Source of the DNA: a virus
Virus record (IMG/VR): IMGVR_UViG_3300023110_001943
Span: 1 to 64,000 of that record
Reading direction: 5' to 3' (one strand)
Length of the DNA: 64,000 bases
Shown here piece after piece: positions 1,404 through 57,668 of this stretch; position 1 is the first letter of the stretch, and every line of letters starts with the position of its first letter. Both the position numbers and the translations under genes were made by a program. The notes below the pieces were generated by a model. The model had not been told where the DNA came from and searched no databases. It was given only the letters and a program-made list of their open reading frames with translations.

Positions 1404-2609
1404 GTGGTTACACTCTTCGTAAAAGAAATAAGATTATTCTTATTTGTGTTTCGTTTAGCATACCCTTATATCAATTGGGTAAAATATGTTGATTTTAATC
1501 ACATAATGCAACGAGCATCATTTAAATTTAAGTACAAATCTCAAGAATACAAAGTAGAATTCTTACAACCAACAGGTAATGAAATAGGACCTGATGATAA
1601 ATTTGTTGTTTGTGATAATGATGCAATGTGTTTTCCAACTGAAAATTTCAATGATATTAAACGATTTAAAAAATCAAATGTATTTTCTTTGTATATTGAA
1701 GGTGAGGCGTATCATATAAATGAAAATATAGATGCTTATTTAAAGAATGGTTATCAAATGATAACATCATTTTTACCTTCTAAACTATTTCCAGATAAAA
1801 AAGATAAGAAAAGATTTAATGATAAAGAAAATGTTTTAAATTCTTATTTTTCAGGTATTGTAGGATTTACAAGTAGACAAGACTTTTTTCTAAATCAATA
1901 CATAGGAGAACAACAAATTATACCTTTAGGAGAAACCTCTGATATTTGTTTCTATTCAAGATTGGGTTATAAGGAATGGCGAGATGTGTGCACTTTAGAA
2001 TTTAGGGATATACTAAAAAATAGTGAACTTAGTATAAATGAAATAAATTCTTTTAGAGAATTAAATGATGATGAAGAAATTAACAATCCATCAAAAGATG
2101 AGTTAGATTCTTATTACATAAATCAGTTAATAGAAGCTAAATCTTTTTTACATTATTTGTATTTCTTTGATATGTTTGATTCTAAATTACATTTGGTATA
2201 TGAAACATCACTCGAAGAACCTTTTATTTTTACAACTGAAAAAATATATAAAGAACTTGTATTTGGTTTTCCTTTTTATTGTGTTCAACCAACAACAACT
2301 CGTGATTATCTAAAAGAACTTGGATTTTATTCTTTTGACATGGATGACTGGGGCTCATTCTACAATCATTCACAAATTGATTTTCAAAAAAAATTAGATA
2401 AAGAATTTCATTTGAACATACCACATACAGAAGAAATCAATAGGTTTTTAAATTTTATAAATCATATTTCAAAAATGAATAAATCTGAATTCAAAGATTT
2501 CATATTAAAGTACAAACCTAAATTTGATAATAACAGAAAAATTTGGAATAGCTACATAACCGAAGAAAGTAAACCAAGAGAAGAAATTTTAGATTTTATA
2601 TTAAAATGA
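1404..2609 (+). CDS. TEK-motif protein (GT10/GT-B glycosyltransferase-like C-terminal domain)
   Basis: VYET...FTTEKIYK...FPF...LKELGF; true start probably the ATG near 1506. Confidence 0.5.
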   Translation: MVTLFVKEIRLFLFVFRLAYPYINWVKYVDFNHIMQRASFKFKYKSQEYKVEFLQPTGNEIGPDDKFVVCDNDAMCFPTENFNDIKRFKKSNVFSLYIEGEAYHINENIDAYLKNGYQMITSFLPSKLFPDKKDKKRFNDKENVLNSYFSGIVGFTSRQDFFLNQYIGEQQIIPLGETSDICFYSRLGYKEWRDVCTLEFRDILKNSELSINEINSFRELNDDEEINNPSKDELDSYYINQLIEAKSFLHYLYFFDMFDSKLHLVYETSLEEPFIFTTEKIYKELVFGFPFYCVQPTTTRDYLKELGFYSFDMDDWGSFYNHSQIDFQKKLDKEFHLNIPHTEEINRFLNFINHISKMNKSEFKDFILKYKPKFDNNRKIWNSYITEESKPREEILDFILK

Positions 2610-3427
2610 AAGGTATAGTATTTGCAGGATGTTCGTTTACTTGGGGTGAGGGATTAGAACTCTATTCTAATTACTCAAGTATTAACATAAATTCAATTAA
2701 AAGATACTCATATAATTTTCCTGATTTGGGTTATTTTATGCCTAACTCACATTTAAAATTTATAGAATCAAATAGATTTAGTAGATTGGTATCGCATCAT
2801 TTTGGTACTTTTGATTTGGTTACAGAAAAAAATGGTGGAAATCATTCTACGATGTTAACTCATATAAAAAAATCATTATTAGATTATGGTGATGATATTG
2901 GATTGATAGTTGTACAATTAACAGAATACCTTAGAGGATTAAAAGTGCATGATAATTGTAATGATGAATGTTGTTCAAAAGATTTGGTAAGAATGGTAGA
3001 AGATTATTATGCATTTAAAAGTGGAGATAAGGATGAAGATAAAAAATACTATCACGATATCATAGAAAAAAATATAGAAGAAGAGCCTGATTATTTTTTA
3101 AAATCACTTGGAAAATCAGAACTTAATAAATTCATAAAAAATTTAGAAGAAATTAACAATGAAACTAAAATTCCAATAAAATTTATAGGTTCATGGTTGG
3201 AATCTAACTTACCAATTGAGAATGATTTTTATGATAATAACTTAATAACAATAAACTATAAAGATAAAGAATATAAAACAATAGCAGATTTATTATCTGA
3301 CCATAATAGCGAATTAATAATTGCAAATGAATTAGAATGGTCAAATAATTGGCACCCAAATTTAAAATTTCAAAAAGTAATAGCAAAAAATATTATAAAT
3401 TATATAGAAAAAAATAACCTTTTGTAA
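2606..3427 (+). CDS. SGNH/GDSL-like esterase or acyltransferase
   Basis: GCSFTWGEG block I, GGN block II, C-terminal WHPN. Confidence 0.7.
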   Translation: MKGIVFAGCSFTWGEGLELYSNYSSININSIKRYSYNFPDLGYFMPNSHLKFIESNRFSRLVSHHFGTFDLVTEKNGGNHSTMLTHIKKSLLDYGDDIGLIVVQLTEYLRGLKVHDNCNDECCSKDLVRMVEDYYAFKSGDKDEDKKYYHDIIEKNIEEEPDYFLKSLGKSELNKFIKNLEEINNETKIPIKFIGSWLESNLPIENDFYDNNLITINYKDKEYKTIADLLSDHNSELIIANELEWSNNWHPNLKFQKVIAKNIINYIEKNNLL

Positions 3428-3501
3428 TTTTTATTATATTTAATCACATATAAAACAGAATAATATTCGTTTTTTATATTTAAAAACATATAGTAAAATA
3501 A

Positions 3502-3663
3502 ATGGCAAACTTATCTGAAGAAATAGGAAGAATTTGTAATATTTTAGAAGATGCAATCGAAGAACAGGATTGGAATCTTGTAAAAAAAATGACAGAAGAA
3601 CTCGATGGTATCTATGAAAGATTAGATAGACAAGAAAGTGGGTTCGGATATGATTACGAATAA
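3502..3663 (+). CDS. Small acidic helical protein (53 aa), not in ORF track
   Basis: ATG 3502 to TAA 3663, MANLSEEIGRICNILEDAIEEQDW..., fills the intergenic gap. Confidence 0.6.
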   Translation: MANLSEEIGRICNILEDAIEEQDWNLVKKMTEELDGIYERLDRQESGFGYDYE

Positions 3664-55600: not shown

Positions 55601-55606
55601 AGTGAT

Positions 55607-56095
55607 ATGACAGATAAGAAAAAGATAGTTTACATCGATATGGATGGAGTCTTAGTTGACTTCGGTAAAGCAATTGATGATTGGTTTCAAAACCATCCAC
55701 ACTTAGAAGATAGATACAAAACATTTCCAGACCACATACAAGGTTTATTCAGAATAGCTCCACCAATAAAAGGAGCTATCGAAGCTGTTAAGAAACTACA
55801 TGAAAGTGGTAAGTATGAATTGTTCATTGCTACTTCTGCTCCTTGGGGTAATCCACAATCAAATACTGATAAAAGATTTTGGATAGAAGATTACTTCGGT
55901 GATATCTTTCACAAAAGAATGTTTATTACTCACAGAAAAGATTTACTGATGGGTGATTACTTAATCGATGATAGATTGAAGAATGGTGCTGGGGATTTCA
56001 AAGGTAAACTATTGAGATTTGGATACGATTGGGAAAACGATAACAAACCAAATGAGTTTCCTACTTGGGATAGTATTTTAGATTATTTATTATGA
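55607..56095 (+). CDS. 5'(3')-deoxyribonucleotidase (HAD family)
   Basis: DMDGVLVDF, TSAPW, K, LIDD. Confidence 0.88.
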   Translation: MTDKKKIVYIDMDGVLVDFGKAIDDWFQNHPHLEDRYKTFPDHIQGLFRIAPPIKGAIEAVKKLHESGKYELFIATSAPWGNPQSNTDKRFWIEDYFGDIFHKRMFITHRKDLLMGDYLIDDRLKNGAGDFKGKLLRFGYDWENDNKPNEFPTWDSILDYLL

Positions 56096-56532
56096 TGAAC
56101 AAATTATTTGATTATTTAGTTGTTATATTTTTGGTATTGGTAATGATAATGGCTGCCTCATGTACCACTCCAACTGAAGATGATGAATTTTTTGGTATAC
56201 CTGAAATGGAACTTGATGGTAGATTACCAATAGATACAAATGGTTATTATCATTTGGAACTAAATTCTTCAACAAATCAAACAATACATACAATTGGTGG
56301 TAAAGTAACCAACACATATGAACCAAGTAAAGTAACATGGGGAAGTAATTTGTTTTGGGAATTTAATGGAGAACTCGTACCCACGATAAATGGTTCTTCT
56401 TATGTTCAAGATAATGGAGATATTAATACTGTTATTGCACCCATCTTTAGTATGAGAAATGATACATTAGTAGTTCAAGCAGAACTTAATGAATGGAATA
56501 TCATACAAACAATTAAGATTGTATTAGATTAA
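56092..56532 (+). CDS. Lipoprotein
   Basis: Hydrophobic N-terminus ending AASC. Confidence 0.6.
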   Translation: MMNKLFDYLVVIFLVLVMIMAASCTTPTEDDEFFGIPEMELDGRLPIDTNGYYHLELNSSTNQTIHTIGGKVTNTYEPSKVTWGSNLFWEFNGELVPTINGSSYVQDNGDINTVIAPIFSMRNDTLVVQAELNEWNIIQTIKIVLD

Positions 56533-57668
56533 TGAATTTTGAAATTTGGTATCATCCTTACCTTGGTAAGCAACACCTTCATACTATTATAGAAGAATAC
56601 ACAGACCTTGAAATAAAAGAGTTTGGTAAAGACCTTATTGATACTTCTAAAATAAATTTAATTCCTTTTTATTGGGAAAATAAATTGGTAGATAGTAGAA
56701 GAATTATAAATACCAAAGAATTCTCAGATATTTTAATTGAGTTAGATAAAAATGATTTTTATTTAATTGGTGATTTTAGTGGAGAAGCTACTGAAAATTA
56801 TTCTGATGAACTATGGGATAACAATTTAAATATTATTTTTAGTAAATGTAAAAAGAATAGATTCTTAATAATACAAAATAATTTTGATATTGGTGAAGTA
56901 AAGGAAATATATTATGGCAGTTATAAAGTAAAAACAATACATCTACCATATTTTATTTTATCTACTCCTATTTTCATGAATGATTATATATCAGATTTAT
57001 CTCAGTATGAAAATTTAGAAAAGAAAAAAGATTTTATTTGTTTAAATCGAAGAGTAAAACGGCATAAGTTTTTATTTTTAAGAGAATTATATAATAGAAA
57101 TCTAATTGATAAAACATATTGGACATATGTTTCTAATTATGTAGATAAGAGTACATTTAACGAAGGCTCTTTTACAAATGATATGGGAATCTCATTTGAG
57201 GATTTCAAACCAATACAACTAACAGGAGATGTTTATTATGGACAAGAGCTTGATTATAAAGATGAATATCTTTACACTATAAATCCAAAATGGTATTTTG
57301 AATCAAAGGTGAATTTAGTAGTTGAAACATATAATCACAATCCATGTCATATTACAGAAAAAGTTCTAAAGCCTATTTATCTTGGAGTTCCTTTTGTTGT
57401 TTATTCATCAAAAAACTATTTAGATAAATTAAAAGAATTTGGATTTAAAGATTATACATCTATTATAGGAAATTATAATCCAAATAATATCGATTCAGTA
57501 ATTGATGCATCTATTATATTAAAAGATGTTTATAATAAAAAAGAAATTATTGATATTATAAATTATAATAAAAATCTTATTAGAAATAAATCACATTTGA
57601 TTAATATTTTAAATAATACTTTTTTTACACAACTAAAAAAAGTTACACAACCTAATAATCTTATATAA
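56532..57668 (+). CDS. TEK-motif protein (GT10-like)
   Basis: FICLNRR..RH, VVET...ITEKVLKPI..GVPF...LKEFGF. Confidence 0.6.
   Translation: MNFEIWYHPYLGKQHLHTIIEEYTDLEIKEFGKDLIDTSKINLIPFYWENKLVDSRRIINTKEFSDILIELDKNDFYLIGDFSGEATENYSDELWDNNLNIIFSKCKKNRFLIIQNNFDIGEVKEIYYGSYKVKTIHLPYFILSTPIFMNDYISDLSQYENLEKKKDFICLNRRVKRHKFLFLRELYNRNLIDKTYWTYVSNYVDKSTFNEGSFTNDMGISFEDFKPIQLTGDVYYGQELDYKDEYLYTINPKWYFESKVNLVVETYNHNPCHITEKVLKPIYLGVPFVVYSSKNYLDKLKEFGFKDYTSIIGNYNPNNIDSVIDASIILKDVYNKKEIIDIINYNKNLIRNKSHLINILNNTFFTQLKKVTQPNNLI

Follow-up and report, generated by a model that had tools for sequence, protein, structure and literature searches.

IMG/VR virus record IMGVR_UViG_3300023110_001943 is a linear sequence of 141,496 bp (genome G000 below), and its first 64 kb, the whole stretch analyzed here and called the window, hold a series of plus-strand genes for unrelated accessory enzymes whose products end in two hydrophobic residues. 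The record has a GC content of 30.4% and a CheckV completeness of 76%, and it carries the terminase, portal, and baseplate genes of a tailed phage; the nearest cultured relative, as judged from the large terminase (55.7% identity), is Flavobacterium phage vB_FspM_immuto. Start codons lack a Shine-Dalgarno signal and many genes are preceded by TTG-N17-21-TAnnTTTG, which we take to be the Bacteroidota promoter type; a marine member of this phylum is thus the probable host. Two classes of promoter-like motif recur across the genome (in the window at 28330, 41904, and 49721, for example). The Bacteroidota-type element, TTG-N17-21-(C)GTATATTTG, stands upstream of many accessory genes, and TATATTTATA stands upstream of structural genes and of 34155, 45926, 47649, and 49750. 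A metagenome contig that is 98% identical (L049) extends to the left of window position 1 and carries two more genes of the tagged type (188-1481, ending NSLI and PTLM), so the record was cut inside the tagged region.

Enrichment of a C-terminal dipeptide

An initial annotation of the window had proposed that 17 proteins of five folds share a C-terminal tag. All 17 pentapeptides that it gave are correct, the position attached to each being the start of its gene, and we name genes in the same way. Four of the folds hold up, namely cupin, radical S-adenosylmethionine (SAM), 2-oxoglutarate (2OG) oxygenase, and one SGNH-like family, whereas the TEK/GT10-like assignment was not confirmed; the ten proteins called SGNH-like belong to several sequence families, some of them linked, with GDSL support for one family of 207 aa. 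We defined the ending as [LFIV][LIV] directly before the stop codon of a plus-strand gene and counted it among the 180 non-nested open reading frames (ORFs) of the record, 173 of which lie on that strand. It closes 23 of 101 genes in the window and 32 of 173 genome-wide, versus 5.5% for the same dipeptide inside proteins (p about 1e-9). The hydrophobic excess is confined to the last two positions, with none at -3 to -8. Six window ORFs beyond the 17 carry the ending (24948, 27309, 28368, 35623, 47262, and 55607), where about four had been counted before. Genes of housekeeping type are untagged, among them those for a phosphoribosyltransferase, PNP, PfkB, PhoH, UvdE, a helicase, dCMP deaminase, ThyA, HSP20, and a GH6 protein.

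Such an ending might arise at the nucleotide level, as a by-product of AT-rich codons, of ATGA and TAATG stop-start overlaps, and of the context of the next start codon, with no function in the protein. We regard this as highly improbable for the ending as a whole, although the DNA makes a visible contribution. Position -1 is T at 60% of start codons, also where there is no overlap, and in this context an ATGA overlap tends to give NTA as the last codon and therefore Leu, Ile, or Val; 20 of the 26 genes with an ATGA overlap end in one of these residues and 12 carry the full tag. The last codon has A as its third base in 58% of genes, as opposed to 41% for codons in gene bodies, and a terminal Ile is written ATA in 17 of 23 cases versus 37% in gene bodies. 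Of the 23 genes at the late glycan locus (105-125 kb), 10 have Leu, Ile, or Val as the last residue and only 3 have the full two-residue ending. The overlap caveat that came with the initial annotation thus accounts for Leu or Ile in the last position at ATGA overlaps.

Overlap is rejected as the sole cause, because the enrichment persists among genes whose stops are not overlapped (13/102 genome-wide, p = 0.004; 9/64 in the window, p = 0.008). Loss of the enrichment on this exclusion had been named as a way to refute the tag, and that refutation fails. The five stops that had been described as free of downstream overlap lie 74, 19, 62, 239, and 235 nt from the next gene, and tagged stops are found 3 to 235 nt from it. 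Most Leu codons are enriched at both positions (TTA, CTT, CTA, and TTG each about 2-3-fold at the last, and TTA, CTT, and TTG about 2-fold at the penultimate), and conservation runs across different codons and contexts. No shared DNA motif was seen overlapping the tagged stops; the two promoter-like motifs lie beyond them.

Nothing comparable is seen in controls whose GC is equal or lower or that have many ATGA overlaps. The first 100 kb of immuto (GC 33.9%) has the ending in 7 of 158 genes, below expectation; IMG/VR contig L001 has it in 0 of 33 despite eight ATGA overlaps; and a Flavobacteriales metagenome-assembled genome (MAG; 29.5% GC) has it in 9 of the 305 genes counted over 360 kb, versus 6.0% internally. 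Base composition, host clade, and compact packing therefore do not make the pattern, composition being rejected specifically by the 29.5%-GC and immuto controls. In the 2OG-oxygenase cluster of cyanophage S-CAM8, none of the five annotated 2OG oxygenases is tagged, and neither are their neighbors. Paralogy was likewise rejected as the cause, as families within the genome are tagged only in part (3/6, 3/5, and 3/4) and unrelated families share the ending.

Conserved tails in three enzyme families

The radical SAM enzyme at 52642-53667 contains a CxxxCxxC motif with C107, C111, and C114 invariant, and its fold matches viperin, BlsE, and MoaA (E about 1e-6). Among the best 120 of its 811 homologues (41-91% identity), 111 end in [LIV][LIV], or 116 with Met allowed at -2. 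Ile is last in 112 of the 120 and Leu, Ile, or Met penultimate in 118, while -3 to -8 vary freely and the codons of the dipeptide differ (TTA, ATA, or CTT, then ATT, ATA, or TTA). The ending is found in 0 of 23 bacterial relatives (23-33% identity; 23 genomes, including an AT-rich Flavobacteriales MAG).

The SGNH-like protein at 50935-51558 has the GDS, G, GxND, and DxxH blocks, with G10 D11 (S12 in at least 90%), G40, D42 N43, D175, and H177 invariant in 37 sequences, and its top fold matches, all weak, are all GDSL esterases/lipases (best E 5.6e-3, template modeling score 0.41-0.46). In this family, 49 of 50 full-length homologues (40-89% identity) end in [LIM][LIM], and the K/N/E/D-rich linker before the terminal dipeptide differs in length, with indels. 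The third family is that of the small 2OG oxygenase at 52172-52645, where 17 of 20 close representatives, mutually less than 50% identical, end in two hydrophobics; among more distant 2OG relatives the figure is 1 of 57. Neither the radical SAM nor the SGNH-like family has a match in 50,697 cultured phage records, and the 2OG family finds there just distant cyanophage matches, all of them untagged.

As the distant 2OG, bacterial radical SAM, and cyanophage relatives are without the ending, it is an addition to the fold. By these comparisons, it marks the versions of each fold that occur on uncultured marine and lake contigs, which are presumed to be of phage. The expectation that homologues would keep the terminal dipeptide was borne out in three unrelated families and failed at 15818, 19798, and 20862, to which we return below.

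Pooling the 148 unique tails of the three families gives a profile that is hydrophobic at -1 in 98% and at -2 in 96% (Leu, Ile, or Met; never basic). At -3, Ser, Thr, Asn, or Gln accounts for 54% and Lys or Arg for 19%, with Asn and Lys as common as Ser and Thr, and Lys or Arg makes up about 40% at -4 to -6. The radical SAM tails (n = 120) have Lys in 70 and Gln in 4 at -5, and Lys in 37, Ile in 34, and Gln in 17 at -4. Read from these alignments, the motif is roughly K-K-x-[N/S/T/K]-[L/I/M]-[I/L]-COOH and is under purifying selection, and about 11 of the 17 proteins make up a core in which the tag is genuine. For the core families, the by-product explanation is refuted; it stands for unconserved, overlapped cases alone.

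Structural models bear on a different explanation, in which the endings are independent of one another: the last two residues would pack on the protein's own surface or on a neighboring subunit, and streamlined genes would stop right after them. In the AlphaFold2 model of the radical SAM enzyme, the predicted local distance difference test (pLDDT) is 91 overall and below 50 at residues 338-341, with 334-341 in coil, so that its tail is not placed. The SGNH-like model, with residues 194-207 in coil, has a last block at pLDDT 72 and the coil just before it at about 91, which would suit a packed ending, as do the cupin TP-x-D-[LI]-L and the NT5C DYLL, both conserved along with neighboring residues. 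On the other hand, three unrelated folds converge on the ending after basic or polar linkers that vary in sequence (and, in the SGNH-like family, in length), relatives of the same fold do without it, and immuto, equally compact, has no enrichment. We therefore consider independent packing an unlikely origin.

Tagged genes of the window (Table 1) were compared with orthologues on the syntenic metagenome contigs L004, L006/L007, L017, L019, L020, L023, L024, L049, L050, and L071. Of the 16 genes so compared, at least 12 retain two hydrophobics (11 of the 14 from the initial set): 2606, 3638, 12179, 21577, 41386, 43393, 47262, 50935, 51555, 52172, 52642, and 55607. Orthologous tails often differ in codon or residue and keep the class (LL/LI, IL/LL/ML, FI/LI, LI/VL). 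Thus 2606 has orthologues ending NNLL (L049, 98% identity) and NNVF (L050, 71%; CTT TTG becoming GTT TTC), and the cupin at 3638 has PKDIL (L023), PDDLL (L050), and PNDLL (L049), again with different codons. The orthologue of 12179 on L007 (50% identity) ends KRKLI, with LI retained and the linker altered, and that of 47262 on L017 (58%) ends LKSLI, TTT having become TTG. Two L024 homologues of 41386 (31-33% identity) end TNKLI and LSSLI, the homologue of 43393 on L071 (39%) ends KNSFI, and orthologues of 51555 end PNKLL, PSKLL, and SNTML. The tail of 21577 is conserved as KKRVL (L004) and VENLI (L006), with alignments that stop about 12 residues short of it. At 18993 the last residue alone is conserved (orthologues end ILYL and ALHI). 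The L017 orthologue of 55607 is 94% identical with an identical end and so is uninformative on tail conservation. No relatives of 29857, 39156, or 56532 were found in IMG/VR scans.

Table 1. Tagged genes and associated features of the window
Coordinates	Strand	Feature	C-terminal tail	Remarks
2606-3427	+	273-aa enzyme	EKNNLL	stop not overlapped
3638-4060	+	Cupin_2 protein	TPNDLL	Pfam E=7.5e-8
12179-13036	+	DUF6071-like enzyme (weak match)	FDKNLI	stop not overlapped
15818-16654	+	278-aa paralogue of 12179	KELLI	ATGA overlap
18993-19817	+	274-aa paralogue	EELFL	
19798-20865	+	355-aa protein	PKKSLL	six-residue extension at ATGA overlap
20862-21590	+	DUF6071 protein (28 bits)	IYGFI	
21577-22914	+	445-aa enzyme	PDNLI	
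24948-25130	+	ORF with like ending	PRVI	
27309-27572	+	ORF with like ending	VGLI	
28368-28598	+	76-aa ORF	DSILL	ATGA overlap
29857-30672	+	271-aa protein	NKGFI	
35623-35976	+	ORF with like ending	DDVI	
39156-40055	+	299-aa protein	TKRLV	not overlapped
41386-41898	+	small 2OG-Fe(II) oxygenase	KQNLL	weak Pfam match; not overlapped
43393-44181	+	262-aa protein	PVPII	not overlapped
47262-47615	+	117-aa protein	IKSFI	
47649-49556	+	635-aa protein, C-terminal Hint (self-cleaving) domain		PT-HINT E=1.8e-17; directly upstream of tagged operon
49721-49730	+	TATATTTATA motif		19 nt upstream of operon 49750-53667
50935-51558	+	SGNH/GDSL-like, 207 aa	FKNNLL	conserved blocks, weak fold matches
51555-52175	+	206-aa enzyme, family with 20862, 23441, 93246	EEKQIL	
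52172-52645	+	2OG-oxygenase-like, 157 aa	RETKLL	core tagged family
52642-53667	+	radical SAM, 341 aa	TKKVLI	Pfam PF04055; next gene 235 nt downstream
55607-56095	+	NT5C/HAD nucleotidase	LDYLL	Pfam E=4e-14
56532-57668	+	378-aa paralogue of 19798	QPNNLI	
58092-58493	+	HSP20 (alpha-crystallin)		Pfam; adjoins island in G000, L017, L024

Islands, neighboring genes and candidate readers

Tagged genes tend to stand together. A 116.7-kb relative (L024) has an island of 13 consecutive genes, 12 of them with the ending [LI][ILM], including genes for two radical SAM enzymes and four 2OG oxygenases as well as SGNH-like genes; the thirteenth encodes a homologue of the window's Hint protein and ends LYL. 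Most stops of this island are separated from the following gene by 3 to 119 nt. The operon downstream of the Hint protein in the window includes a row of four tagged genes (50935-53667). Homologues of the Hint protein are also encoded within or adjacent to the tagged islands of L017 and L024. No Hint protein is encoded less than 10 kb from a tagged radical SAM gene on L018, L022, or L023. L018 and L022 are immuto-like contigs of marine origin in which the tagged radical SAM gene lies amid genes of the 7-deazaguanine pathway (QueC, PTPS, QueE-like, and GTP cyclohydrolase I), and further genes of this neighborhood encode a carbamoyltransferase, an APS kinase, and a SPASM radical SAM enzyme; the last gene on L022 is that of a TonB-dependent receptor.

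The company of the Hint protein in G000, L017, and L024, taken with the strictly terminal position of the tag, would fit a conjugation handle: a ligase, perhaps the N-terminal part of the Hint protein, would act on the C-terminal carboxylate and join the enzymes covalently to a scaffold. We searched for support of an ATP-grasp or ligase identity for that part of 47649-49556 and found no significant match (PafA E=0.23, lost with a profile; GSP_synth E=0.17). With the Hint protein also missing near the radical SAM genes of the three contigs just named, a conjugation handle seems very unlikely.

The HSP20 gene that adjoins the island in three contigs encodes the one putative reader that was put through a complex prediction. 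An HSP20 (alpha-crystallin) dimer with the SGNH tail scored 0.33 versus 0.00 for the best control, a result graded as weak support, with a run-to-run contact agreement of at least 0% and a partner pLDDT of at least 36. In calibration, 58 of 80 solved complexes came up to the mark, as did 2 of 110 mismatched pairs; both of these mismatches, but just 7 of the 80 solved complexes, did so at 0.60 or below. As modeled, HSP20 is a weakly scored candidate and a lead only.

Another way to read the tail is as a degron or unfoldase handle, through which an AAA+ machine, either host ClpX, ClpA, or Lon or the phage MoxR-type ATPase at 7593-8807, would degrade or remodel the enzymes at a set time of infection. 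That the tag is always terminal hints at recognition of the alpha-carboxylate, and the run of basic residues before a hydrophobic end resembles the MuA-type ClpX signal, RRKKAI-COOH. The phage itself encodes an AAA_5/CbbQ_C ATPase with a conserved 702-aa neighbor, and the lack of a placed radical SAM tail in the AlphaFold model is what an unfoldase would require. Against this, conservation of 93-98% over deep divergence exceeds what would be expected for a signal whose loss merely stabilizes the enzyme, and ssrA-type tags are generally known to end in Ala-Ala, not Leu-Ile. A degron thus strikes us as improbable, though a more serious contender than packing or conjugation.

Several further genes deserve mention in their own right. 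The 702-aa protein belongs to no known family and is followed by the MoxR-type AAA_5 ATPase, which has a weak CbbQ_C match (5396-8807, plus strand); a 68% identical protein stands beside the cupin on L023 (17747-21050), an AAA gene again following, and relatives occur in Microcystis phage Mel-JY01. The AAA_33/zeta-toxin-like kinase at 561-1382 (plus strand) ends KKNNLIKK, that is, NLI plus two Lys, and its orthologues end ANLIKK (L023), NNLIKK (L049), and SNLIKK (L050). A 284-aa protein at 30672-31526 (plus strand) matches glycosyl hydrolase family 6, of cellulase/cellobiohydrolase type (E=8.7e-51), which is unusual for a phage of a marine bacterium. The plus strand also encodes an Asp/Arg beta-hydroxylase-family protein (37722-38396, E=7.8e-8) and a protein with an LPD29 domain (26212-26850, E=4.3e-6). 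The 3' end of 19798-20865, at its ATGA overlap, turns over fast: compared with P0001, the protein is 99% identical over 355 aa and differs in its last three residues (SLL versus ILI, the latter in PKKILI).

Possible roles of the tail and comparison with known systems

The terminal position, the conserved aliphatics, the variable basic linker, the presence on at least three unrelated folds, and the absence elsewhere point to a reader outside the enzyme. The reading we favor, to which we would give slightly less than an even chance, is that the tail is a selected short linear motif, a docking or address label read by one common partner. The phage lineage would have added the motif to many unrelated accessory enzymes (radical SAM, 2OG, SGNH-like, cupin, and others); the free carboxylate and the two side chains would be read by one pocket on one common partner, either phage-encoded or a protein of the probable Bacteroidota host; and through this binding, interchangeable enzymes would be assembled at, or brought to, a single place or substrate. 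A common docking partner most likely gives the best explanation of how strongly the tail is conserved, an AAA+ degron being the main alternative. The initial idea of a common C-terminal peptide on unrelated enzymes stands in part, as regards a selected, shared peptide, given three families and relatives without it; docking to a scaffold, a degron, and packaging are candidate functions.

A bolder version of the docking proposal, and a distinctly more doubtful one, makes the tail the address of an undescribed protein-sorting or assembly system in an aquatic phage lineage; a single reader, encoded by the phage or co-opted from the host, would bring together at least a dozen interchangeable tailoring enzymes on a common platform or substrate. 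The self-cleaving Hint protein beside the islands and an HSP20 oligomer would be candidate platforms, and new enzymes would join by acquiring four C-terminal residues.

A number of observations weigh against a docking label. Some tailoring enzymes are untagged, namely the 2OG protein at 16651, the aminotransferase at 18362, the PfkB at 13874, and the sulfotransferase at 28983. Three tails of the initial set, all overlapped, are not conserved: orthologues of 15818 (77-78% identity) end ELSS (L004) and ELSL (L006); 11 of 12 orthologues of 19798 (47-80%) end FxF-K-[I/L/K] or FNFIK six residues earlier, the twelfth having a different extension, HKSKYKL; and orthologues of 20862 end FKKF, NGYN, and NKWI. 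Tags are also not kept at 70299 and 77118, further along the genome. About 3-7 of the 17 tails, and at least 3, are by-products of ATGA overlap with T(-1) or of short extensions, as far as the alignments tell. The SGNH tail, modeled at moderate confidence, may partly pack on its own domain. As to a reader, G000 (76% complete) gave no match to PDZ_2, the only PDZ model used genome-wide, to DNA_pol3_beta_3 (beta-clamp), or to the gp45 clamp, and about 70 window proteins scanned against Pfam yielded neither a PDZ nor a TPR nor a clamp family; these searches covered the proteins of the phage, not those of its host. Finally, two hydrophobics are a very small motif, and the data fit a binding, degradation, or structural role alike.

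Short C-terminal address labels on unrelated enzymes are familiar from eukaryotic organelles and from encapsulins. To the best of our knowledge, no such label is known for phage-encoded metabolic enzymes. If one reader recognizes the tail, these phages would organize their accessory enzymes, whose sets are large and change fast, in space, or time their turnover, by means of a plug-in peptide. This would account for the entry of new enzymes into a pathway, offer a route to the common substrate of dozens of enzyme families of unassigned function in marine metagenomes, and possibly provide a very small tag for co-localizing proteins in bacteria. The families are abundant, as the 811 radical SAM homologues attest, yet absent from the cultured phage records, and their biology is therefore experimentally untouched.

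The closest parallel in form is peroxisomal targeting signal 1 (PTS1), [SAC]-[KRH]-[LM]-COOH, which is read by the TPR domain of PEX5. Both signals consist of the strictly C-terminal three or four residues after a flexible, often basic linker, are shared by many unrelated enzymes, and have homologues that work elsewhere without them. The phage tails depart from the PTS1 consensus in having a hydrophobic rather than a basic penultimate residue (Leu, Ile, or Met in 96%), and they belong to a bacterial virus without an organelle, with no TPR family in the scanned window proteins. Class I PDZ ligands, x-[S/T]-x-hydrophobic-COOH, share with the tails the free carboxylate and the hydrophobic last residue (98% of 148 tails); two positions before it, where these ligands have Ser or Thr, the tails have Ser, Thr, Asn, or Gln in 54% and Lys or Arg in 19%. 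The ligands differ in that a strongly hydrophobic penultimate residue is not required, and the 76%-complete genome has no detected PDZ_2 domain. Bacterial PDZ proteins are mostly periplasmic, and the tagged enzymes need cytoplasmic cofactors.

Encapsulin cargo-loading peptides are C-terminal, sit on unrelated enzymes, and direct them to one HK97-fold shell related to phage capsids, and the C-terminal peptide on unrelated enzymes and the clustering of genes recall the phage islands. Cargo peptides, however, are about 10 residues long (of L-G-I-x-x-L or L/I/V-G-x-G-x-L type) and not necessarily terminal, whereas the phage tails have no Gly-rich spacing; no shell gene lies beside the islands, which are tens of kb from the structural module, and oxygen-labile radical SAM enzymes are unlikely virion cargo. 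The MuA-type ClpX signal is similar in its basic residues, its small or hydrophobic C-terminus, and its unstructured tail, a likeness by sequence only, and the phage core consists of two aliphatics, not Ala-Ile or Ala-Ala. The bacterial sliding-clamp motif QL[S/D]LF, often C-terminal, offers a polar -3, two terminal hydrophobics, and many clients on one hub. Its Gln and Leu are not matched, as Lys, not Gln, dominates -5 in the radical SAM tails, and no clamp gene was found in the 76%-complete phage genome, the host clamp lying outside the search. In small heat-shock proteins, an I-x-I/V motif anchors in the beta4-beta8 groove; its hydrophobics alternate and those of the phage tail are adjacent, but here too a hydrophobic C-terminal motif docks on an oligomeric hub, and an HSP20 gene adjoins the tagged island in three contigs.

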